Counted from the first letter of the stretch, positions 1 through 12,230 are shown. The stretch is 64,000 nt of DNA from an uncultured archaeon (GCA_964347045.1 CAYFXC010000002.1:1-64000), one strand, 5' to 3'. The notes: a model not told the origin generated them from the sequence alone. Program-made: numbers and translations.

Positions 1-554
1 AGCGCTTCGATGAGCACTCGCGCATGTTCTTTCACAATTCAATCCTTCGAAATCGAGCCATTGGAACAGGGATATTACCTGCAGATGAAGCGATACGACT
101 TGGTGTCGTTGGACCCGCTCTTCGTGGCTCAGGAATTGACTCCGATATTCGTATAGATGAACCCTATGATTCCTACAAAAAACTCGATGTTCCAATTGCG
201 GTTAATGAGGGATGCGATTCATATGCACGGTGTCTAGTACGGCTTGAAGAAATGCGTAATAGTGTCTCAATCATTCGCCAAGCACTAGATGATTTACCAA
301 ATGGAGAATTTCGAGTCAAAATTCCGACTCGAGTTAAAGATGGATCAAGTTTTACCCGCGTTGAAGCAGCTCGTGGTGAACTCTGTCATTATCTGGTCTC
401 ATGTGGCACCAATAAGCCATACCGTCTCAAAATATCTACTCCAAGTTTCCGGAACTTATTAGCTATACCATATGTTTTGCGCGGCTGGCACCTTGCTGAT
501 ATGCCAACCAATTACATGAGCCTTGATTATTGGCCCGTTGACGCAGACAGATAG
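1..554 (+). CDS. nuoD: Complex I-like (Nuo/Fpo) subunit D, 5'-truncated by the window edge
   Basis: GPALRGSG, EAARGE, PYRLKI and a C-terminal DYWPVDADR. It lacks the C-terminal CxxC of [NiFe]-hydrogenase large subunits. The frame is open from position 3. Confidence 0.93.
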   Translation, partial: RFDEHSRMFFHNSILRNRAIGTGILPADEAIRLGVVGPALRGSGIDSDIRIDEPYDSYKKLDVPIAVNEGCDSYARCLVRLEEMRNSVSIIRQALDDLPNGEFRVKIPTRVKDGSSFTRVEAARGELCHYLVSCGTNKPYRLKISTPSFRNLLAIPYVLRGWHLADMPTNYMSLDYWPVDADR

Positions 555-1715
555 GTGAAAAAAATGCAAGTGATACCAAACATCATTGAAATTATTGCGG
601 GGTTAATCGCATTTACGCTAGTTCACATTCCAGATCTTATTCGCACATTAATATTCCCAGGTTTCCTCACACTCACTTTAGCCGCCTATCTGATGGTTTG
701 GTTCGAACGGAAATTCTTAGCAAAAATCCAATTGCGAGTTGGACCGCAGTACGCTGGACGCTTTGGTGGAATCTTGCAACCCGTTGCGGATTTTCTGAAA
801 CTCTTTTTTAAAGAACATATCGTTCCTGAAAAATCTGACCGATTATTTTTCCGAATCGTTCCAATTGTATTTCTCGCTTTGGCATCTCTCCCCATCATTG
901 TAATACCTTTTGGGACATCAATTCTTCCCATTCCGAACGCAACTTTTCAAGTTTGGACACCGTATATAATCTCTTGGGTAATAATTGGTGAGGGGTTCGT
1001 GGCAACATATGGCTTGCTTATTTTCTTTGCCATCTCAGCACTCTTTCCGATGGTTGTTCTTATTGCTGGATGGGCAAGCAACAGCAAATACCCTTTCATT
1101 GGAGGAGTCCGTTCACTCTTTCAACAAGTTTCCTATGAGATTCCCATGTGGATATCTGCCCTAGCTGTCGTTGTGTTAAGCGGATCAATCAACTTAGCAC
1201 AAATTACATTCTCACAACAACAGATTTGGTTTATTTTCCCCTTATTTCTCTCAGCACTCATTTTCTTCATCGCAATTGTTGCAGAACTCGAGAGAGTTCC
1301 TTTCGACTTACCCGAAGCGGAACCAGAAATTGTTTCTGGGTGGATGACTGAATATTCGGGGGCACCATTTCTTCTCATCTATTTAAGCTTCTATGTCAAA
1401 ATGTTTACTGTTGCCGCGTTATTCACAACTCTCTTCCTGGGAGGATGGCTTCCAATGCCTTTTGTTGCAGGTGGAATGTTTACTCCACCGCTACCAGTTC
1501 TGTTACCTAACTTTCTTCCAGAACCTGTCTGGTTTTTAGTAAAAACAGGTCTGGTTACTATACTGATAATATTCCTGCGAGGAGTCTATCCCCGAACACG
1601 TATAGATCAAATTTTACGTGTAGCGTGGTCTATCTGGATTCCACTTTCCTTTGTGGCTTTATTTCTTGCAGCTTTTCTAGTAATATTTGGAATATTTCCG
1701 ATTGGAGGACTATAA
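555..1715 (+). CDS. nuoH: Complex I subunit H
   Basis: ERKFLAKIQLRVGP, LQPVADFLKLFFKE, RVPFDLPEAEPEIVSGWMTEYSG, PRTRIDQ. ATG at 564 is an alternative start. Confidence 0.96.
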   Translation: MKKMQVIPNIIEIIAGLIAFTLVHIPDLIRTLIFPGFLTLTLAAYLMVWFERKFLAKIQLRVGPQYAGRFGGILQPVADFLKLFFKEHIVPEKSDRLFFRIVPIVFLALASLPIIVIPFGTSILPIPNATFQVWTPYIISWVIIGEGFVATYGLLIFFAISALFPMVVLIAGWASNSKYPFIGGVRSLFQQVSYEIPMWISALAVVVLSGSINLAQITFSQQQIWFIFPLFLSALIFFIAIVAELERVPFDLPEAEPEIVSGWMTEYSGAPFLLIYLSFYVKMFTVAALFTTLFLGGWLPMPFVAGGMFTPPLPVLLPNFLPEPVWFLVKTGLVTILIIFLRGVYPRTRIDQILRVAWSIWIPLSFVALFLAAFLVIFGIFPIGGL

Positions 1716-1717
1716 GA

Positions 1718-2188
1718 ATGGTAAGACTACTTGATTCAATTCGACCATTAGTTTCTGGATTTAAACACATCTTTTGGAACCGATTAACAATAAAATATCC
1801 CGACCAAAGACTTGAACTTCCTCAAAGAGAAAGAGGCCGCCATTTCCTAAAGCTTGAAAAATGTATCGGATGTGGTCAATGTCAACGTATCTGTCCAACA
1901 ATCGCAATTCAATTAGAGAAACTTGAGGAGAAATATTCGGAGAAAAACAAACCAAACATGTATCCAAATATTGATTTTGGTCGCTGCTCTTTTTGTGATC
2001 TTTGCATTGAAATATGCCCAGTGAATGCATTAGAACATACAGACTTCTATGAACTCTCAGAAACAACCAAACAACCGTTATTTCTTTCTCCAATCGAATT
2101 TGCCAATAAACCTATGGAAAAGGGTTGGCGAAAGAAACAGAAACGAAAAGCCATGCAAATCAGTCGCAGGGGGTTATATCATGATTGA
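1718..2188 (+). CDS. nuoI: Complex I subunit I (2x[4Fe-4S])
   Basis: TIKYP, CIGCGQCQRICP, CSFCDLCIEICP. ATG 1718 follows GGAGG. Confidence 0.95.
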   Translation: MVRLLDSIRPLVSGFKHIFWNRLTIKYPDQRLELPQRERGRHFLKLEKCIGCGQCQRICPTIAIQLEKLEEKYSEKNKPNMYPNIDFGRCSFCDLCIEICPVNALEHTDFYELSETTKQPLFLSPIEFANKPMEKGWRKKQKRKAMQISRRGLYHD

Positions 2189-2717
2189 ACTAAATGACTT
2201 ATTATTCTACACTGTAGCAGTAATAATAGTTTTATCAGCAATCCTTGCTCTCGAATCTCGTGACCTCATTTATGGAGCAGTATCATTATCCATAACCTTT
2301 GTTGGAGTTGCATTTCTTTTCATATTACTGGGAGCAGCTTATGTTGCAATTTTCCAAATCGCTATGTACATTGGGGCTGTGGTAGTTCTCATCCTATTCA
2401 CAATAATGGTAGTTGGAAGTAGTCGGAGAAAGGAGGCAGATGAGAAAAGGAGTGGACGAAGAGAACGAGCCTTAGAATATGGAGCAGCAATTGTTGTTGG
2501 TTTAACTTTAATTGCGTTGTTATTTACTTTGGGTAGTAGCCTATTTACTTTCGCTGGTCCTTATAGTCTTACACTAATCGATATAGGATATGCTCTCTTC
2601 TCACAATATGGCCTCGTATTTGTAATAATGGGTCTTGTTGTGGCATCAAGCCTAATGGGTGCTTTGACGCTTGCAAAAATCGAATCAAGGAAGGTTGATG
2701 ATGATACCAATAATTAA
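2181..2717 (+). CDS. nuoJ: Complex I subunit J
   Basis: FQIAMYIGAVVVLILFTIM motif, hydrophobic, position between nuoI and nuoK. Start set to ATG 2181. Confidence 0.93.
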   Translation: MIELNDLLFYTVAVIIVLSAILALESRDLIYGAVSLSITFVGVAFLFILLGAAYVAIFQIAMYIGAVVVLILFTIMVVGSSRRKEADEKRSGRRERALEYGAAIVVGLTLIALLFTLGSSLFTFAGPYSLTLIDIGYALFSQYGLVFVIMGLVVASSLMGALTLAKIESRKVDDDTNN

Positions 2718-3009
2718 TTACCTAATCTTGGCTGTAATCCTTTTGGCACTTGGGCTCTACGGAATAATGGTTAAGCGTAATGCCATTCGTATGCTATTTA
2801 GCATTGAACTGATTTACAATGCAGTAAACATCACGGTCATTGCATTAGCGCGTTTCTTCCAACCTACAGCCATTATTGGACAAATTGTAGTACTATTTAC
2901 GATTGCGATAGCGGCTACTGAAGCCGCATTAGGCTTAGCCCTTATTTTGGTCATCTATCGTCTTTACGGAGATATTGACATCCGAGAACTTAGCAAACTT
3001 AAGGGGTAG
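2698..3009 (+). CDS. nuoK: Complex I subunit K
   Basis: RNAIRMLFSIELIYNA and AIAATEAALGLA, with both conserved Glu residues; 3 TM helices. Confidence 0.95.
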   Translation: MMIPIINYLILAVILLALGLYGIMVKRNAIRMLFSIELIYNAVNITVIALARFFQPTAIIGQIVVLFTIAIAATEAALGLALILVIYRLYGDIDIRELSKLKG

Positions 3010-3015
3010 AAAAAA

Positions 3016-4548
3016 TTGCAAATAATTTTAGAATTTATATACTCAATTGTGATGTTACTCGAACCAACATTACTTTTACAAACTGTTTTAGTTCCATTTA
3101 TTGCTTCACCATTTGTATACCTAATCGGCAAACGAGTAGGAATTCGCATTGGCTGGCTAGTAGCCGCCCTGCTGTTTTATTCGACCTTGTTGCTCAGCCT
3201 AGGATCAATTTTTGGAATTGCCCAAACTTCTTATCAATGGTACCCCATTGGAGAATTTGGCTTCCGACTCGATGGATTAAGTGCTCAATTCGCATTAATT
3301 ATTACCCTTCTATCAGCTCTAATCGCCATCTACTCTATGCCCTACATGAAACATCGTGTTGAAGGAAATGAGACAGCAAACCGGCAAGCTGCTGCATACT
3401 TTGCCTTATTCCTCCTGTATTCGGCTGGTATGCTTGGAGCTGTTCTCGCAACCAACCTCATAGAATTTTACCTATTCTTCGAATTAATGCTAGTTCCATC
3501 CTATTTTATCATCGCTCAATGGGGATATGGAGATCGCGAAAAAGTAAGCATGATCTATTTTATGTGGACGCATATCGGAGCACTCGTATTGTTGGCGGGG
3601 TTCCTTGCAACAGGATTTCTTGCTGGAGGATTCAATATAGCAATAATCACTGAGATTGCTATTCCAGAAATATTCCGTTTAGGCATCATTGTCGCAATTT
3701 CTTTTGGATTTGTTGTAAAGATGGCGGTTTTTGGCGTTCATGTCTGGTTACCACATGCTCATGCTGAAGCGCCAACACCCATTAGCGCAATGCTTTCCCC
3801 GCTAATGATTGGAATAGGAGGCTATGGTATAACTCGATTTGTCATTCTAATTTTTCCCACAACATTTCAAGGTATTAGTATCTTTTTCGCTATTTGGGCT
3901 CTACTCACTATGTTTTATGGAGGAGTCATGGCAATTGCCCAATCTGATATCAAAAGACTATTGGCATATTCCAGTGTTTCTCAAATGGGTTACATTCTCT
4001 TTGGTTTAGCATCTTTTCAGTTCTTTGGAGCTGTAGGAGCGATATTTCACTATATTAGCCACGCAACCGGTAAAGCAATTCTCTTCTTAACGGCTGGAGC
4101 GATTATTTTACAAGCTGAAGGAATCCGAGAAATTTCAGCCATGGGAGGACTTGCCCGACGGATGCCAATTACTGCAACAGCTGCTATTATAGGCTTCCTA
4201 GGAATTCTTGGATTTCCATCAACCAACGGTTTTCAAAGTGAGTGGATGATTTTTGCCGGGGCTTTTGGTAACGCTCTATTGAATAACTCATTGCCATTGT
4301 TAGCAATTGCAGCGGCGGGTGTTATTTCCACTGTCTTCACGGCGGGATATTCCCTTTGGACTATCCGACGCGTATTCTTTGGGGAATTACCTGAAGAGCT
4401 AGCAAATGTGCCTAGACCAGGTTTTAAGATAACCGTACCCCTCATAATTTTGGCAGTCATTACTATTATTCTTGGCCTGTATCCTGAGATCGTCGTTGCA
4501 CCTGTAAAAGCCGTCATTGAAAGTGTAATACCATTTCCAGGAGTCTAG
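3016..4548 (+). CDS. nuoM: Antiporter-like subunit NuoM, first copy (M1)
   Basis: FYLFFELMLVP, GFVVKMA, HVWLPHAHAEAPTP, KRLLAYSSVSQMG, GFQSEW. The true start may be 3049 or 3052. Confidence 0.9.
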   Translation: MQIILEFIYSIVMLLEPTLLLQTVLVPFIASPFVYLIGKRVGIRIGWLVAALLFYSTLLLSLGSIFGIAQTSYQWYPIGEFGFRLDGLSAQFALIITLLSALIAIYSMPYMKHRVEGNETANRQAAAYFALFLLYSAGMLGAVLATNLIEFYLFFELMLVPSYFIIAQWGYGDREKVSMIYFMWTHIGALVLLAGFLATGFLAGGFNIAIITEIAIPEIFRLGIIVAISFGFVVKMAVFGVHVWLPHAHAEAPTPISAMLSPLMIGIGGYGITRFVILIFPTTFQGISIFFAIWALLTMFYGGVMAIAQSDIKRLLAYSSVSQMGYILFGLASFQFFGAVGAIFHYISHATGKAILFLTAGAIILQAEGIREISAMGGLARRMPITATAAIIGFLGILGFPSTNGFQSEWMIFAGAFGNALLNNSLPLLAIAAAGVISTVFTAGYSLWTIRRVFFGELPEELANVPRPGFKITVPLIILAVITIILGLYPEIVVAPVKAVIESVIPFPGV

Positions 4549-4554
4549 TATCCA

Positions 4555-6855
4555 ATGTGGTTCAGCCCAGAATTAAGCGCACAATTGCTGGTCATCAACC
4601 CTCTCGCAATACTAGGAATTCTAGTTTTCTGGATATTTCCAATCCCCTTTATAGGGGCTTTGTTAACCCCAATTTTAGCAAGAATACATCCGAAACTTAG
4701 AGACTATTTTGCTGTCCTAACTAGTTTCATAGCAGCACTCGCAGCAACAGCGCTCATACCGATTGTTTTGGGTGTAAGTTTTCCTTTCCCTCTTCCACAA
4801 TGGCAAATACCTTGGATCCCATCTCTTGGTATTACATTAGGTGTTCTAATCGATCCACTTAGTGTGTTCATGGCGAATATTGTCACTTGGCTTACTTTTC
4901 TTATAATGGTTTACAGCTTAGGATACATGAAGGGAGAGACGAGTCTCACTCGCTATTGGGTATTTATGAACCTATTCCTCGGTAGTATGCTACTCATTGT
5001 GATGTCGGATAACTTGCTTCAATTGTTCTTCGGCTGGGAGGGAGTCGGACTTTGCTCATATCAACTGATTGGTTTTTATTTTTCCGATCGCAGGGATAAA
5101 TGGGTTGGTGTACCTGGAGAAACAGCATTAGGCGTCGAAATGGCTTATGCCCCAAGCCATGCTGGAATGAAAGCATTTATTGTTACAAGGATTGGAGATG
5201 TTTTCCTTCTCGCAGGAATACTTTCTATTGGATTAACAGCCGGAACATTCAGTTTTATTGAACTAGCTGAACATACTCCATGGGCTGCTCAGCTGGCAAG
5301 TATGGGATTATTAGTTCCAGTTTTTCTTTCCATCTTCATTGGTGCAATTGGAAAATCCGCACAATTCCCTTTACATGAATGGTTGCCAGATGCAATGGCT
5401 GGACCAACATCTGTTTCCGCATTAATCCATGCCGCTACTATGGTGAAGGCGGGTGTTTACTTAATAGCAAGGATGGCTCCCCTTTTCTATATTCTTTTGA
5501 GCACCTATGGTGGGGTAGAGATCTTTTTCTATACTGTTGCCGGAATCGGAGTTTTTACGGCATTTCTTGCAGGTTCACAAGCACTCGTCTCAAGTGAAAT
5601 AAAGAAAGTTCTCGCTTATTCCACCGTTTCTCAAATTGGTTACATGATGTTAGGCCTTGGTGCAGCAGGACTTGCACCTGAATTTGCAGGTGGGTACGTT
5701 GCTAGTCTTTTTCATTTAATGAGTCATGCCGTTTTTAAGGCATCACTTTTCATGGCTGCAGGGGCAGTTATCCACACCGTAGAATCTCGGTTCCTTGATG
5801 ATATGGGGGGTCTCAAGAATGTGATGCGAATAACCTACGTATCAATGATCTTGGGAGTTCTTTCGCTCTCTGGTGTTCCGCCATTCTCTGGATTTTGGTC
5901 CAAGGACGCTGTTTTACTCGCTACATGGTCAACTGGTAACACTATCCTGTTCAGTTTAGGAGTGATAACAGCAGGCCTGACAATTCTCTATAGCTTTAGG
6001 ATGATTGGTATGATATTCCATTCACCCAAGAGCGCCCATTTAAAGCAATTAGAGGATGAAGGCCACCATCTTCATACTCCAAATAAACTTTTCTGGGTAC
6101 CATATGGAATTCTTGCCCTAGTTAGCCTTATCCTTGGTTTCGCAGGACCACTTCTTGAGAGTAATCTTCACACTTTCTTTGAACCACTATTTCATGGAAT
6201 AACCAGTCATGGAGGAGAAATAAACCAGAGTCTTGCATTAGCTTCAACCTGGACAGCCTCCGCGGTTGCATTATCCATTGGTGGTTTGCTGGGATACTTA
6301 CTTTACATCCGCCCCTCGTTTGATATTCATCGAGCAGTCAAGCAGAATAGAGTATTACGTGCATTCAACAAATTCCTTGTTAATCGATGGTACATGAATC
6401 CTTTGTTCTACAAAATCTTCGTGTACGGAACAATCCGAGCTAGTAAGGGCGCTTATAGACGAATTGAGGTTGGAGGAATTGACCAACTCAATGTCAAAGT
6501 TGCACCAGCCATCATCCGAGGATCTATGACATTAAACCGTACCGTTGAACAACGAGGATTTGACTCTACGAATACCGGGTTTGCAAAACTTGGAGTTAAG
6601 ACATCACGCTTAGCAGATTGGATTGACGTTAATGCTATCGATGCAATTGCTAACAAAATCAAAGGAACTGGAGGTTGGCTCTCCCAAAAAATTCGACGCC
6701 TCCAAACAGGCATTACTCACCAATACGTGTTCGCTCTTGTCGCAGGTCTTGTTGTTGTTATTCTACTATTTGAACCATTGCTTCTGTTAAATCCAATAGT
6801 ATTACTTGTGATAATTGTGGTTCTCGTTATCACAGCAATTCTATCACTGAGGTGA
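4555..6855 (+). CDS. nuoL: Antiporter-like subunit NuoL with extended lateral helix (766 aa)
   Basis: FGWEGVGLCSY, KAFIVTRIGD, GKSAQFPLHEWLPDAMAGPTSVSALIHAATMV, FWSKD, C-terminal LQTG. Confidence 0.96.
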   Translation: MWFSPELSAQLLVINPLAILGILVFWIFPIPFIGALLTPILARIHPKLRDYFAVLTSFIAALAATALIPIVLGVSFPFPLPQWQIPWIPSLGITLGVLIDPLSVFMANIVTWLTFLIMVYSLGYMKGETSLTRYWVFMNLFLGSMLLIVMSDNLLQLFFGWEGVGLCSYQLIGFYFSDRRDKWVGVPGETALGVEMAYAPSHAGMKAFIVTRIGDVFLLAGILSIGLTAGTFSFIELAEHTPWAAQLASMGLLVPVFLSIFIGAIGKSAQFPLHEWLPDAMAGPTSVSALIHAATMVKAGVYLIARMAPLFYILLSTYGGVEIFFYTVAGIGVFTAFLAGSQALVSSEIKKVLAYSTVSQIGYMMLGLGAAGLAPEFAGGYVASLFHLMSHAVFKASLFMAAGAVIHTVESRFLDDMGGLKNVMRITYVSMILGVLSLSGVPPFSGFWSKDAVLLATWSTGNTILFSLGVITAGLTILYSFRMIGMIFHSPKSAHLKQLEDEGHHLHTPNKLFWVPYGILALVSLILGFAGPLLESNLHTFFEPLFHGITSHGGEINQSLALASTWTASAVALSIGGLLGYLLYIRPSFDIHRAVKQNRVLRAFNKFLVNRWYMNPLFYKIFVYGTIRASKGAYRRIEVGGIDQLNVKVAPAIIRGSMTLNRTVEQRGFDSTNTGFAKLGVKTSRLADWIDVNAIDAIANKIKGTGGWLSQKIRRLQTGITHQYVFALVAGLVVVILLFEPLLLLNPIVLLVIIVVLVITAILSLR

Positions 6856-8324
6856 ATCAAATGCTTTTATTGATCATAATCTTTCTGCCACTAATAGCCG
6901 CTCCATTGATTTACCTTTTGGGGCGCCCTAGTCCACGAGCAGCTCGATGGACTACTTTACTAATCAACATTACTGTCTTTTTTGCATCATTCCTAATTTA
7001 TCTTGGACTGTTTTCACTCGATCCCAGCACCTTTCAGTTCCTAGTAAATTATACATGGATTGATTTCTTCGGCATTCAGATTCCTTTTGAGGTTGGTGTT
7101 GATGGAATCAGTGCACCTCTTCTTCTATTATCAACCAGCCTTAACATGTTAGCCACTGCAGGTTCCTTTACGCTAGTTAAAACTAATGAACGGCAATACT
7201 ACTCACTCCTTTTAATATTTGGAGGAGCTGTGGTCGGCGTATTCACAGCACTTAACCTAATTGTATTCTTTGTGTTCTGGGAATTAGCGATTATTCCAAT
7301 GTTCTTTTTTATTGGCATTTGGGGAGGCTCTAAAAGAAAGTATGCAGCAATCAAGTTCTTGCTTTTTACTACACTAGGTAGTCTATTGATGCTCATTGGA
7401 TTCATTGTGGTGTTTCTCTGGTCAGGTGGTAGTACATTTGATATACCAATACTTCTTGCTAACCGCCTGCCACAAGAATTACAACTTATTCCAGCTATCT
7501 TATGCTTTATTGGTTTTGCAATTAAGCTTCCCGTGATTCCCTTTCACACTTGGTTACCAGACGCTCATGTGGAAGCTCCATCTCCTATCAGCGTCTTACT
7601 AGCGGGTGTAATGTTGAAAATGGGAGGGTATGGAATTATTCGAATAGTAATTGGACTATTTCGTGAATTCGCTATTGTATATGGTCCATTTCTTATTATC
7701 CTTAGTTTAGGATCCGTTTTATTTGCAGCGTTCACAGCCATGTTTCAAGATGACCTCAAACGAATGGTTGCTTTGACTTCAATTAATCACATGGGTTTCG
7801 TTGCAGCTGGTGCATTTACAGTAACATCTCTCGGTATCGCAGGAGCCGTATTACAGATGTTTTGTCACGGATTCGCAATTGGTCTTTTGTTTTTATTGAC
7901 AGGCGTTATCCAAAAAGGAGCAGGGACACGAAAAATTAGCCAGCTAAAGGCTTTAGGAATAGGAATGCCCCTGACAAGCCTTTTATTGATATTAGGGTCC
8001 TTGGCTTCAATGGGGATACCGGGTTTTGGCAATTTTGTAGCTGAATTTAGTGTCATACAAGCAGTAATTGGTGTTCAATGGATATTTGGTATACTTGTTT
8101 TAGGCCCAGGAATTACTTCTGCCTATTTCTTATGGACTTTACAACGGATATTTCGACGAGCAGAACCAACGTTAACAGAAATGAAATCAGCATCAGCCTG
8201 GGAAATTGGTACATTGGCATTATTTGTTGTGCCTATTCTAATTTTAGGAATCTTTCCGTTTTTAATAATGACCCTAGTTTATCCAGCAACAGCAGTATTG
8301 CTCAGTTCAATAGGAGGAACCTAA
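6852..8324 (+). CDS. nuoM: Antiporter-like subunit NuoM, second copy (M2)
   Basis: FFVFWELAIIP, YAAIKF, HTWLPDAHVEAP, LAGVMLKMGGYG, NFVAEF. GTGA overlap with the nuoL stop. Confidence 0.93.
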   Translation: MNQMLLLIIIFLPLIAAPLIYLLGRPSPRAARWTTLLINITVFFASFLIYLGLFSLDPSTFQFLVNYTWIDFFGIQIPFEVGVDGISAPLLLLSTSLNMLATAGSFTLVKTNERQYYSLLLIFGGAVVGVFTALNLIVFFVFWELAIIPMFFFIGIWGGSKRKYAAIKFLLFTTLGSLLMLIGFIVVFLWSGGSTFDIPILLANRLPQELQLIPAILCFIGFAIKLPVIPFHTWLPDAHVEAPSPISVLLAGVMLKMGGYGIIRIVIGLFREFAIVYGPFLIILSLGSVLFAAFTAMFQDDLKRMVALTSINHMGFVAAGAFTVTSLGIAGAVLQMFCHGFAIGLLFLLTGVIQKGAGTRKISQLKALGIGMPLTSLLLILGSLASMGIPGFGNFVAEFSVIQAVIGVQWIFGILVLGPGITSAYFLWTLQRIFRRAEPTLTEMKSASAWEIGTLALFVVPILILGIFPFLIMTLVYPATAVLLSSIGGT

Positions 8325-9776
8325 ATGGCATTCGAATTGTATATAATTCTTGGAATACTGGGAATCGCTGGTATCCTTATTCCACTCCTTGATCAAGTAA
8401 TCTATTCTCGTTTGGGCAAGCACATTGCAGGGTACATGGCAGTACTTGCCCAATTAGTCTCAGCTTTACTTCTTGGTTGGATTGTAATAGCAAAAATTCC
8501 CCTTACGACTCCATTCGAAAATTTGATTTCTCCTGATGAGTTTGGAATCTTTTTTGGAATAGTATTTCTTTTAGTAGGGATTCTCATAACCATAGCATCT
8601 ATTAACTTCATGCGTGACGACCCGAATCAGGGTTCGTATTATGCCTTGATTATCCTTGCCGTCCTTGGATCATTATTAGTAGCTTTTTCAATTGATTTAG
8701 TTATGCTCGATGTTGCTTGGGATCTAATGTTCGTAACTACGTTGGTTCTTACTGGTATTCGGAAAGGAGATTGGCTCTCTAGTGAAGCCGCATTCAAATA
8801 TTACATTCTAGGAGCTTTATCAACAGCCTTTGTATTTCTTGCCATCGCATTTTTCATAGGAATAGCGGGCACCACCTCCCTAATTGGAATAGCCGCTGCA
8901 CTTCCTAGCATTTCCGTTGAGCTCCAACCACTATTAGTACTGGCGATTATTTTCACGATCATAGGCTTTGGTATTAAGATGGCAATCGTACCCTTCCAAT
9001 TTTGGATCCCTGACGCCTATGAAGGGGCACCAACGCCCATTGGCGGTTTTTTAGCAGCAGGAACTAAAAAAGCAGGATTTGCAGCTAGCCTCCGAGTTCT
9101 CACAATCGCTCTTATCACGGCACCAGTTATCATATTAGCGCGTTGGAGCTTTGCTATAGCATTTCTAGCGGCGATTACTATGACAGTGGGCAATTTTGCT
9201 GCCTTGACTCAGAAAAGTTTTCCTCGCATGCTGGCTTATTCCTCAATTGCACAAGCGGGGTATATGTTAATCGGAATTGCATTTCCAAACACCGTTTATG
9301 GTATACCTGGTCTCCTTTTCCATACACTGAATCATGCCATTATGACCGCAGCAGCTTTCATTGCGGCGGCAGGCGTTTCTTTAACCCTGAAATATACTTC
9401 AGTTAGTGGATATGACGGATTAGCCAAAATCATGCCAAAAACTGCTTTTATACTAACTCTGACGCTTTTTGCCCTTGCAGGTATCCCACCGTTTAATGGA
9501 TTTTGGAGTAAGGCGGTATTATTCATGGCCACCGTTGAAGCCAACGCTCTTTGGCTTGGTATAGTTATGGTTCTAAATAGCGTCTTCTCATTGGGCTACT
9601 ATTCATGGATAATCAAACGAATGTATTTAGATGAAACTACTATTTCAACTAAAATTACAGAACCTCGTGGAATTTTAATTGCATTAATTATTGCAGGAAT
9701 CCTTATCCTATTAATTGGAATCTATCCATCACCCTTCTTCACATGGATATATGGTTTCACAGGTTATGTTCCTTAG
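8325..9776 (+). CDS. nuoN: Antiporter-like subunit NuoN
   Basis: SEAAFKYYILG, KMAIVPFQFWIPDAYEGAPTP, RMLAYSSIAQAGY, GFWSK. Confidence 0.94.
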   Translation: MAFELYIILGILGIAGILIPLLDQVIYSRLGKHIAGYMAVLAQLVSALLLGWIVIAKIPLTTPFENLISPDEFGIFFGIVFLLVGILITIASINFMRDDPNQGSYYALIILAVLGSLLVAFSIDLVMLDVAWDLMFVTTLVLTGIRKGDWLSSEAAFKYYILGALSTAFVFLAIAFFIGIAGTTSLIGIAAALPSISVELQPLLVLAIIFTIIGFGIKMAIVPFQFWIPDAYEGAPTPIGGFLAAGTKKAGFAASLRVLTIALITAPVIILARWSFAIAFLAAITMTVGNFAALTQKSFPRMLAYSSIAQAGYMLIGIAFPNTVYGIPGLLFHTLNHAIMTAAAFIAAAGVSLTLKYTSVSGYDGLAKIMPKTAFILTLTLFALAGIPPFNGFWSKAVLFMATVEANALWLGIVMVLNSVFSLGYYSWIIKRMYLDETTISTKITEPRGILIALIIAGILILLIGIYPSPFFTWIYGFTGYVP

Positions 9777-9816
9777 AATTTCAAGAGCCTATTTTGTATT
9801 GGAGCCGATACGATTG

Positions 9817-10539
9817 TCAAGCGGTTAGGAGTTCAATGCCGCACTGGCTATCGCCCCGTGCCATACACCCCTTTCGACCAATAGTCTGCACATTCACGTT
9901 GCAGGTCAACGAAAGAAGTTTCGGGTAGTACATCAAGTGAAAATTACACAACAGACCTTCATATTTTCTACTTACTTCGCTGTACAGACAATTCTTTGTT
10001 GTGATGATTATCCTTTTTTTCTGTATTGCCACATGTGCATTATATCCAATTATATTCAGTTCTTGTCGCAGCCTTTGGCGGAAAGATTCAAGGCTCATAG
10101 GAAACCGAGAAGTTTGACTCCAGTTTTCGGCAGTAGCAATCGCAGAATTTACTCCCATTGTTTGAAATATGCGTTCTGTGGCCTCTGTGCCAATTTCGTC
10201 CAGTAATGTCATTATAATGCGATCAGATAGTTGCCAATACCTACGGGGAGGAATGGAAAATAGAAGTGCTTTTTTTAGAACATAATTTGATGATGGACGT
10301 CCGCGTCCTCTTTTTCCTGCCTTTTCTAAGGAGCTGTGAGCTATTAGAACATCTTGAGCAAGAAGATCAGAAATAACATACCGTACTGCTGCATCGCTCA
10401 GATTCGTTCCATCAGCAATTTCTCTAGTCGTTGAATTAGGGTTGGCAGCAATGAACTTTATAACAAGCGTGGCTGCAGTTAAACGATGATGAGTAAGCTG
10501 AGCGAAGGACTCACTACTAAGAATTTTTTTTTCAATCAA
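9817..10539 (-). CDS. ArsR/SufR-like winged-HTH regulator with Cys-rich (V4R-like) C-terminal domain, paralog 1
   Basis: HTH TTREIADGTNLSDAAVRY, wing RGRGRP, NCLY...LCNFH...CMARGDSQC. Confidence 0.82.
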   Translation of the reverse strand: MIEKKILSSESFAQLTHHRLTAATLVIKFIAANPNSTTREIADGTNLSDAAVRYVISDLLAQDVLIAHSSLEKAGKRGRGRPSSNYVLKKALLFSIPPRRYWQLSDRIIMTLLDEIGTEATERIFQTMGVNSAIATAENWSQTSRFPMSLESFRQRLRQELNIIGYNAHVAIQKKRIIITTKNCLYSEVSRKYEGLLCNFHLMYYPKLLSLTCNVNVQTIGRKGCMARGDSQCGIELLTA

Positions 10540-10674
10540 AAATCAATCATCTTCTTGTGTGGAGGTCATTATTTAATATATATGATTTGTTCTTTAATTA
10601 ATTTTCGATAATAATTTCAAGTAAATTTTAAATGTTATGAATTGAGAGCTTTATCACCCCGCAGGTGTAGGGTG

Positions 10675-10917
10675 ATGTTTAAGGCGTTCATTTTGCTCAA
10701 AGCGGTTCCTGAAAAAACATCGGAGATATTTGAGAAACTTAAAGAAATGAAACAAGTAGCAGAAGCGGATATTGTCTACGGCGAATACGATTTTATTCTG
10801 AAAACCCAAGTGAAATTACCTGAACACCTAGACGACTTTGTGTTCAATGAACTCCGGCAGATAGACGGGGTTAAATCCACCACCACTTGCATCTGTGCTG
10901 GAAGTATACCTAGGTGA
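10675..10917 (+). CDS. Stand-alone Lrp/AsnC ligand-binding (RAM) domain protein
   Basis: AFILLK, VYGEYDFILK, LRQIDGVKSTTT; 80 aa with no HTH. ATG 10675 follows a G-rich RBS. Confidence 0.85.
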   Translation: MFKAFILLKAVPEKTSEIFEKLKEMKQVAEADIVYGEYDFILKTQVKLPEHLDDFVFNELRQIDGVKSTTTCICAGSIPR

Positions 10918-10921
10918 TAGA

Positions 10922-11218
10922 ATGAGTGAGGTAGCTGCATACCGAGAATATAGATTAAACCACATATCAACTAAGCAATCAATTGGTATTGTCAATAAGG
11001 TTTCAAAACTAATGAGAGATATCATAAGCCCAAATGCATGTGAGATTCAAGCAATGGTAAAAGAGGAAGATCCATCCCAGATCGTTATTTCAATGAAATG
11101 TGTTGATGGAAATGCCGTTCATTACGCTGATGTTCGTTCTATGTTTAAAATAATGCAATTGTGCGAAAAAGATCACATATCTCACGAGATAGGCGAACTT
11201 GAAGTAATTCTTGACTAA
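10922..11218 (+). CDS. Hypothetical protein (98 aa)
   Basis: Starts 4 nt after the Lrp-domain stop with a GGTGA RBS. No family recognised. Confidence 0.65.
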   Translation: MSEVAAYREYRLNHISTKQSIGIVNKVSKLMRDIISPNACEIQAMVKEEDPSQIVISMKCVDGNAVHYADVRSMFKIMQLCEKDHISHEIGELEVILD

Positions 11219-11447
11219 ATCCTCTTTTCTTTCGCAATCTTGGCTTCAATTTATGCTTAGAAACTATGTATATATGGATAAACTCAGAAAATTGCGATGG
11301 CTCATATATTGAGGCGATGCGAAAATTTCAGTTCGTGATAAGAGCTTTAGCTTATACGACAAAATTAATTGGAATATTCAATTGAAGCATTTTTGGGGAT
11401 ATTGAAACAATCGTGATGACCCTTGTTCCTACCGAGGTATTTTGGTT

Positions 11448-12230
11448 TTATGATTCGTTTGAGAAATATTTTAAAAACGGAACCAGCAACAACCCAAGAA
11501 GAAATACACTGTTAATGAATGGAATATAGAACATGGTCCAAAGAGCAAATCCAGACCAAAAAGCTAAAGTAAACAAGAGACTTGTCGCGACAAAGAGCGG
11601 TATCTGTTGAGTATTGCTGTATCGAAATTTCATGCATAGAATCAACACTGAGGACATAACAAGTCCTGTAAGAAACCATCCAATAAAATTAGAAAAGGGA
11701 ACACCATAATAGATTCCAGGAGTGAACCAAATCCAAATACCCAGATTAACAAGTATGGGATCGATAGTTAGATCAATAATTACTAAGAGGAGTGCACTAA
11801 GGAGTACAATCTTCCATGGTTTTTGAACATATTTAGTAGCAAATGTAAATGTCCCTAATAAGAGTGGAATGAAAGCAAATGGAACAACCCATGGAACTAG
11901 CCCAAATAGTTTGATTCCCAATGAATCGGAGTAGAAGAAAGAACCATATGGGATTCCTGTTAAAACTCCAAAGCTCTCAATGATAAGGATTAGAAAAGCG
12001 AGGATAAAGACAACAATAATGGTGTTTTGGGAACCGGCCCATCTGTAAAAGAAGTACAAAGAAGGTAAGATTGTGGTAATAATGAATAAATTGAACAGAT
12101 TAATTGGAATTAATGGATGGAGAACGAAGAAAATATAACTCAAGACATATGGACCTAGAATTACTAGAAGAAAAATGAGCAACCGATGTGTACCACTGTT
12201 GGCGCGGGATTCCCGAAGGTTTGCCGTCAT
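11448..12230 (-). CDS. cruF: Carotenoid hydratase, CruF/bisanhydrobacterioruberin hydratase family
   Basis: IESFGVLTGIPYGSFFYS, LGIKLFGLVP, DLTIDPILV, YYGVPFSNFIGW. TAATG overlap with lyeJ fixes the start at 12230. Confidence 0.88.
   Translation of the reverse strand: MTANLRESRANSGTHRLLIFLLVILGPYVLSYIFFVLHPLIPINLFNLFIITTILPSLYFFYRWAGSQNTIIVVFILAFLILIIESFGVLTGIPYGSFFYSDSLGIKLFGLVPWVVPFAFIPLLLGTFTFATKYVQKPWKIVLLSALLLVIIDLTIDPILVNLGIWIWFTPGIYYGVPFSNFIGWFLTGLVMSSVLILCMKFRYSNTQQIPLFVATSLLFTLAFWSGFALWTMFYIPFINSVFLLGLLLVPFLKYFSNES

Follow-up and report, generated by a model that had tools for sequence, protein, structure and literature searches.

A three-module NuoL lateral helix in a four-pump complex I operon of an Asgard archaeon

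The 64,000-nucleotide stretch analysed here (GCA_964347045.1 CAYFXC010000002.1:1-64000, hereafter the window) comes from an uncultured archaeon, an Asgard archaeon according to the thirty Ras-family GTPase matches in its genome. The window harbours an operon for a complex I-type enzyme, and the nuoL gene of this operon (4555..6855, + strand, 766 amino acids (aa)) encodes a lateral, or strap, helix composed of three repeat units, which we call modules, in an operon with four antiporter-like pump genes. The strap has one module beyond those of its closest 2M relatives and beyond what four pump genes account for. Judged from its sequence, the three-module strap on a four-pump 2M-type operon is a real and conserved variant, not described in the Asgard literature searched. 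As 2M complex I we understand an enzyme whose nuo operon includes a second NuoM-type gene and whose NuoL lateral helix carries an insert of about 26 residues, following two papers (PMC9040806, PMC7300363) that cite Chadwick, Hemp, Fischer and Orphan 2018 (ISME J 12:2668); ordinary enzymes of the L-M-N type are termed 1M.

One Asgard lineage holds three states of this enzyme: it has a 1M enzyme, a five-pump operon whose strap has three modules and, directly downstream of that operon, a four-pump operon of equal strap length. The number of pumps in complex I sets the number of ions moved per electron pair, and enlarged complex I has been proposed to help cells live close to the thermodynamic limit or to power reverse electron transport. 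The question raised is whether the modular strap is a ruler that dictates pump assembly, or whether the strap is longer than the arm, and either answer informs how complex I gains or loses pumps. Asgard archaea are the archaeal group closest to eukaryotes. The finding is known at the level of sequence, and a similar mismatch has been described in Manganitrophaceae.

The NuoL assignment of the 766-aa protein is based on matches to PF00662 and PF00361 and on a TIGR01974 score of 501.7 bits (cut-off 407.5), and the best PDB matches were NdhF1/NuoL chains. In an alignment with E. coli NuoL, NuoM and NuoN, the protein keeps the Glu of transmembrane helix (TM) 5, the Lys of TM7 and the Lys of TM12 (WSKD). 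The usual C-terminal layout is present, with TM15 (residues 558-585, 6226..6309, + strand like all features of the operon; AlphaFold helix 558-585 and hydropathy), the amphipathic lateral helix and TM16, after which an added TM17 follows. Alignment and AlphaFold place the lateral helix HL at residues 590-717 (6322..6705), about 128 aa, compared with about 76 aa in the 1M paralogue. The original prediction had counted 106 residues between the Trp of an RWY motif and the Gln of a QTG motif, with three units spaced 27 and 26 residues apart, and the translation and the motif positions give the same picture. RWY is located at 611-613 and QTG at 717-719, W612 and Q717 delimit a span of 106 residues (W612-G719 being encoded by nucleotides 6388-6711), and the motifs IEVGGID (637-643), VEQRGFD (664-670) and IDVNAID (690-696) start 27 and 26 residues apart.

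The units share the acidic signature phi-(E/D)-x3-phi-D and form a tandem of 26-27-residue units 3' of TM15. Delimited by alignment and repeat test, module 1 covers residues 637-663 (6463..6543) and includes Asp643, which lies opposite E. coli D563; module 2 covers residues 664-689 (6544..6621), includes Asp670 and is absent from 1M L subunits; and module 3 covers residues 690-717 (6622..6705), includes Asp696 and ends at Q717 of QTG. E. coli NuoL D563, which we take to be the known conserved strap residue, aligns with the motif Asp, and the window L has three such positions, D643, D670 and D696.

The MAFFT alignment included E. coli NuoL, the host's own 1M paralogue (L721) and other Asgard L subunits. 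The 1M sequences show a single clean gap of 53 residues, not one of about 26, and the 2M sequences show a gap of 27 residues, which runs from the middle of module 1 to the middle of module 2. The W-to-Q span is 53 in 1M, 78-81 in 2M and 106 in the window L, and the corresponding distance in E. coli, W539-E587, is 49. These values agree with the 50-55 residues expected beforehand for ordinary L-M-N complexes and with the single segment of about 26 residues expected for 2M complexes, the strap of the latter being one module shorter than that of the window L. The 1M paralogue L721, encoded on contig C4 of the same genome, has a span of 53 and one motif. If fully helical, at 1.5 Å per residue, the 128 residues of the window strap would extend over about 190 Å, versus about 115 Å in the 1M paralogue.

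TM16, the usual C-terminal anchor, was located at 6712..6780 by hydropathy and an AlphaFold helix at 722-742, and TM17, an added hydrophobic helix, at 6793..6849 (AlphaFold helix 747-765). The presence of an additional hydrophobic helix after the usual terminal TM, also part of the original prediction, is supported by a tail of 49 aa past QTG, versus 27-31 aa in 2M and five-pump L subunits, and by its occurrence in all four orthologues. TM17 is restricted to the window-type L, has the same length in four species and co-occurs with the surplus module. The AlphaFold2 model of L766 was built from a 31-row alignment. Its core is good, and strap helices are predicted at 591-609, 611-667 and 674-714, with a predicted local distance difference test (pLDDT) score below 50 from residue 660; the strap path and the helix break at 668-673 are not usable as evidence. 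The protein also has an added N-terminal helix (residues 5-25) and, at residues 176-198, a loop insert of about 18 residues before GMKAF (pLDDT below 50), both of which are found in the 1M paralogue too.

The modules are alike in register, with profile z values of 3.8, 3.5 and 2.8 relative to column shuffles and a score that peaks sharply at offset 0; the observed module score was reached by 1, 2 and 36 shuffles per 5000. Very recent duplications of the strap unit were found at other loci (G294, P0033, P0047 and L147), and they point to tandem duplication of a 26-27-residue unit as the mechanism generating strap units. A metagenomic C-terminal fragment of an L-type protein, P0050, has four strap units, two of them near-identical. 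A HMMER search of 1.84 billion proteins yielded about fourteen cluster representatives with three modules, mostly fragments.

Full-length orthologues of the window L (766-769 aa, 85-89% identity) also occur in G007, G012 and G013, which represent three further species of the same genus. The strap is without indel in the four species, and all three modules are kept together with D643, D670 and D696. The ratio of nonsynonymous to synonymous substitution rates (dN/dS) was 0.27, 0.15 and 0.11 in three consecutive windows of module size, compared with 0.09 for the core; TM16 gave 0.04 and TM17 0.29. These are estimates from four species with small samples and a dS of about 0.4-1.1, but the strap is clearly constrained and under purifying selection.

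The full operon has the order nuoABCDHIJK-M'-L-M-N, which is complete in G012 and G013, and comprises twelve genes, including four pump (PF00361) genes. The single extra M gene noted at the outset is therefore present, as M' in addition to M. The gene for M' (3016..4548, 510 aa), located upstream of nuoL, encodes an M-type antiporter-like subunit that matches PF00361 and scores 312 bits with TIGR01972 (cut-off 263.8). Downstream of nuoL are nuoM (6852..8324, 490 aa), which is of bacterial type with all key residues present (TIGR01972, 443.6 bits), and nuoN (8325..9776, 483 aa), the last gene of the operon, which matches PF00361 and scores 293 bits with TIGR01770, under its cut-off of 332.6. 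L, M', M and N together comprise 2249 residues.

M' lacks the lysines of TM6 and TM8, with Ile at the position of K173 and Gly at that of K265 (E. coli NuoM numbering). The combination of K173 to I/M with K265 to G is common to M' and the metagenomic 2M family only, where it was found in nine out of nine M' sequences checked; the corresponding subunit of the five-pump operons retains both lysines. Because of these replacements, M' may be less than a full proton channel. NuoN has Asp at the position of the TM5 Glu. Since M' is without two channel lysines and N has this substitution, counting subunits is not enough to deduce a higher H+/e- ratio, and the suggestion that the enzyme has a higher ratio than 2M complexes is weakened. 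The closest relative of M' (59% identity) is encoded at the metagenomic locus L107 (Ga0315268_10026640), in a K-M'-L-X cluster with a one-module L. It follows that M', with its gene upstream of that for L, is the canonical M of archaea, and that the bacterial-type M encoded downstream is the added one.

In a survey of about 100 loci from 400 Asgard genomes and metagenome contigs, the span was measured and the adjacent antiporter genes were counted. A span of 53 (one module) is found with three pump genes in about seventeen Asgard operons, a span of 78-80 (two modules) with four pump genes in twenty-two Asgard operons (families f6, f32 and f33) and twenty-two metagenomic operons, and a span of 106 (three modules) with five pump genes in nine operons of the window genus and family f15. 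In the metagenomic 2M family, the span is 79 in twenty-two loci. The window type, in four species, combines a span of 106 and three modules with four pump genes. A correlation between helix length and pump-gene copy number, proposed in the original prediction as a check, is thus seen in most operons, with exceptions in G100, L147 and G300. Family f19, which includes the closed genome G100, has a span of 105 (three modules) with three pump genes, L-M-N only. G300 has a span of 80 (two modules) with three pump genes in the operon, and two further PF00361 genes, one of them L-like, on another contig. The metagenome locus L147, on a 1.25-Mb contig, has four modules with three pump genes (L-M-N).

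G100 is a closed Asgard genome of 4.9 Mb that possesses just three PF00361 genes, and its locus L102 (G100:C1:4873000-4892999) contains A-K, L, M and N. No operon in which the pump genes exceed the modules plus two was seen in the surveyed loci; consequently, added pumps seem to need modules, yet modules can exist without added genes. In the genome of G306 four pump genes are dispersed, which makes a supply of pumps in trans possible in the Asgard phylum.

Several other surveyed loci are described here as separate observations. Besides L102, family f19 includes the loci L100 (G092) and L101 (G108), and in G108 a two-module L and a three-module L are encoded in tandem. The L of L147/L148 (Ga0315308_1000001), encoded in a J-K-L-M-N cluster, has 695 aa and four modules, two of which are near-identical in protein, indicating a recent duplication. 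At L067 (G025:C84), an L of 680 aa has apparently zero modules (RWY to QTG 26 residues) and one adjacent antiporter gene; this locus, if real, carries the pattern of modules equal to pumps minus two downward.

In trees restricted to Asgard sequences, the window-type M and N are sister to the M and N of five-pump operons, with values of 96-98 in the Shimodaira-Hasegawa-like approximate likelihood ratio test (SH-aLRT); in wider trees the M and N of both operon types are grouped with 97 and 96. A metagenome scan with M' revealed nearer relatives at 51-60% identity, with an identical operon order (A-K, M', L, M, N) and a two-module L. When the metagenomic sequences were added, the window-type L core (SH-aLRT 99), M' (98) and M (94) joined the metagenomic 2M family, and M' nests inside the metagenomic 2M M' clade (98). 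For NuoN, the same trees give no clear branching order of the window type, the 2M family and the five-pump types. In this comparison of Asgard and metagenomic sequences, the window operon is sister to the metagenomic 2M family, which is widespread. Based on the phylogeny of the pump subunits and on the loss of two lysines shared by M', the window enzyme is assigned as a 2M-type enzyme with one added strap module.

Two other derivations were considered. The view of the window operon as a five-pump operon minus one gene was weakened when the metagenomic 2M operons entered the trees. The idea that the strap was recently converted by the neighbouring L gene was rejected because the strap identity between the window L and five-pump L subunits (33-43%) is not above the core identity (38-44%). 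Elsewhere, the L of L051 (G311, L738, three modules, five-pump operon) and that of L054 (G313:C78, L676, one module, 1M operon), both from one genus, have near-identical cores. The near-identity of these cores despite different module numbers suggests gene conversion of the L core between paralogous operons with the strap left out.

The metagenome-assembled genome (MAG) of the host is fragmented (83 contigs), and the operon sits at a contig start. Its genes are close-packed on the + strand, and the nuoL stop codon overlaps the nuoM start codon. Upstream of M', the window contains the 3' part of nuoD (3..554, PF00346), which is cut by the contig start and whose 5' part is found on contig C52 via an exact 55-bp overlap, followed by nuoH (555..1715, PF00146, E 1e-97), nuoI for a 2x[4Fe-4S] protein (1625..2188, Fer4 family matches, start codon uncertain), nuoJ (2049..2717, PF00499, start codon uncertain) and nuoK (2671..3009, PF00420). 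The NuoB orthologue of G013 (B187) has a tandem Cys-Cys, with CC at position 69, and the NuoD orthologue of G013 (D364) is without the NiFe-binding CxxC pairs; the window itself has only the 3' half of nuoD. On both counts the enzyme is of the complex I/Fpo type and not a group 4 [NiFe] hydrogenase. Within the operon, the extent of this search, no E, F or G gene of a NuoEFG module was found. A remnant of a fifth pump gene was also sought: the gap between K and M' is just 6 bp, and no further membrane-protein genes were found 3' of nuoN in the four loci.

The host genome (G000) possesses two other antiporter-bearing operons, the 1M operon on C4 and a five-pump operon on C5. The latter (1-12222, minus strand) encodes A-K and then five antiporter-like proteins (508, 597, L683, 487 and N495), and its L683 has a span of 106 and aligns without gaps to the window L. 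Contig C52 (3.4 kb) carries the remainder of the five-pump N and then A, B, C and the 5' portion of D; it shares exact 55-bp overlaps with the start of C5 and with that of the window contig. As the three contigs are joined by these exact overlaps, the five-pump operon is located directly upstream of the window operon, in a tandem of nuo operons separated by about 266 bp. In G007, the five-pump and window-type operons are present in the same layout on one contig. Neither a five-pump L nor an orphan PF00361 gene was found in G012 and G013, which are 88-89% complete, and the 3' end of a five-pump nuoN was not found upstream of nuoA in these genomes, where the contigs stop about 400 bp upstream. 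In G012, the intergenic sequence shared upstream of nuoA is limited to 164 bp. The search for orphan pump genes, recommended with the original prediction, therefore gave a divided answer, with none in G012 and G013 and an adjacent five-pump operon in G000 and G007. In G311, the first added pump gene of the five-pump operon at L051 (5073-6560; G311:C151:13464-14342) is split by an in-frame TAA into 149 and 347 aa, which reflects either gene decay or a MAG error.

In solved enzymes the strap is anchored by TM15 in L, runs along the neighbouring pumps and is re-anchored by TM16. Considering the gene-count correlation and the alignment with D563, each module is likely a docking site for one M-position pump. 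Nevertheless, strap length alone does not prove a five-pump arm, since the closed genome G100 combines a three-module strap with just L, M and N. The reading that we tentatively prefer, although we hold it at somewhat less than even confidence, is an arm made up of the four encoded pumps, with the surplus module kept by selection as a structural element of the strap that carries a remodelled TM16-TM17 anchor further. The additional module would carry the anchor about 39 Å further (26 residues x 1.5 Å), and the TM16-TM17 hairpin would sit beside the NuoK/J/A bundle, not beside NuoN; the strap path and the anchoring site are both inferred. In agreement with this arrangement, surplus modules without added pump genes also occur in G100, G300 and L147, no spare PF00361 gene was found in G012 or G013, and the strap is conserved and free of indels. 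The four pump genes of the complete operon, the grouping of L, M' and M with the metagenomic 2M operons, the lysine replacements of M' and the joint occurrence of TM17 and the surplus module speak for it as well. A precedent is provided by the strap inserts in NuoL of operons with canonical content in Manganitrophaceae (PMC9040806). Several observations weigh against it. Modules equal pump genes minus two in about 85-90% of the measured operons, which suggests that modules are made to hold pumps, and nine five-pump operons share the 106-residue span. Furthermore, the upstream five-pump operon in G000 and G007 could give a fifth subunit in trans, the incompleteness of G012 and G013 and the end of their contigs so close to nuoA limit the negative search, and the low pLDDT from residue 660 means that the strap path is not confidently modelled.

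The original prediction had instead proposed an arm of five antiporters, built from one M used twice or from an antiporter encoded elsewhere. In such an arm all three modules would be occupied, and the fifth position would be taken by M' or M present twice (homotypic stacking) or, in G000 and G007, by a subunit of the upstream operon. This arrangement is possible, if less probable than the four-pump arm. The part concerning helix length has held. In favour of the arrangement, the strap equals those of five-pump operons in length, aligns to them without gaps, keeps three modules and their Asp residues in four species, and belongs to a series in which most operons combine 53 residues with three genes, 78-80 with four and 106 with five. 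The five-pump operon adjacent in two genomes, the dispersed pump genes of G306 and the lack of any surveyed operon with pump genes in excess of modules plus two are also in its favour. However, G012 and G013 have the operon and neither a five-pump operon nor an orphan PF00361 gene, the three modules of G100 accompany L, M and N only, and TM17 is present in the window L and absent from five-pump L subunits. To our knowledge, the same antiporter subunit is not used twice in any complex I-type enzyme of solved structure. A broader form of the same idea, which we consider rather unlikely, is that the strap and not the gene count sets the pump number, one M-type subunit being used twice or borrowed from the neighbour, so that five modules would be built from four genes. 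If true, module duplication would be the first step in pump gain, with gene duplication later, and other Asgard and metagenomic enzymes with surplus modules would also be accounted for. It is improbable that the third module is a frozen relic of a five-pump ancestor or of an old recombination with the neighbouring L, without a role of its own and retained since imprecise deletion would break the helix. The close relationship of M and N to those of five-pump operons, the tandem position of both operon types in two genomes and the signs of L-core exchange between paralogues (G311 L738, G313 L676) fit such a relic; the module dN/dS of 0.11-0.27 without indel in four species at a dS of about 0.7, the strap identity of 33-43%, which indicates no recent conversion, and the position of 2M operons, not five-pump operons, as closest relatives do not. 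A misassembly, frameshift or chimeric MAG contig might be suspected from the position of the operon at a contig start of a fragmented MAG, and is very hard to reconcile with an L of 766-769 aa and the same strap length in four separately assembled genomes at 85-89% identity, with the intact reading frame in which the L stop overlaps the M start, and with the exact contig joins.

Similar to canonical NuoL, Nqo12 and ND5 (E. coli 3RKO/7NYR, T. thermophilus 4HEA), the window L possesses 14 core TM helices, TM15, a lateral helix, TM16 and the key residues. However, the span is 49 in canonical NuoL and 106 in the window L, one D563-type position is replaced by three, and the window L is further distinguished by an additional helix at the N-terminus, a loop insert of 18 residues and TM17. 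Similar to 2M complex I, the window operon has a second NuoM-type gene and four antiporter-like genes in the order K-M'-L-M-N. The 2M enzymes differ in having one inserted unit (span 78-80, 44 operons measured), whereas the window L has two (106, +53 vs 1M) and in addition carries TM17. Both 2M complex I and a five-pump complex I have been described from bacteria; no description of three-module straps or five-pump operons in Asgard archaea was found in the literature searched. With the neighbouring Asgard five-pump operon (span 106, as in all nine such operons) the window operon shares a strap of three modules that is presumably homologous, together with closely related M and N subunits, and the L subunits of the Asgard five-pump operons are without TM17. 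Similar to five-pump complex I, the strap of the window L is long enough for two extra pumps; nonetheless, five-pump enzymes have five antiporter-like genes, and the window operon and its three orthologous loci have four. In Candidatus Manganitrophaceae, Complex_I_3 is a five-pump complex I in which two MrpD-like subunits replace NuoL, with a single 26-aa insert (PMC9040806). Complex_I_1 and Complex_I_2 of the same bacteria have a NuoL strap insert despite canonical pump-gene content, and the authors suggested that such enzymes may accommodate extra pumps or be in evolutionary transition (PMC9040806). Like the window operon, these two complexes combine a strap insert beyond the pump-gene content with a genome that also encodes an enlarged complex, but they are bacterial, have one insert on an L-M-N set and are of independent origin.

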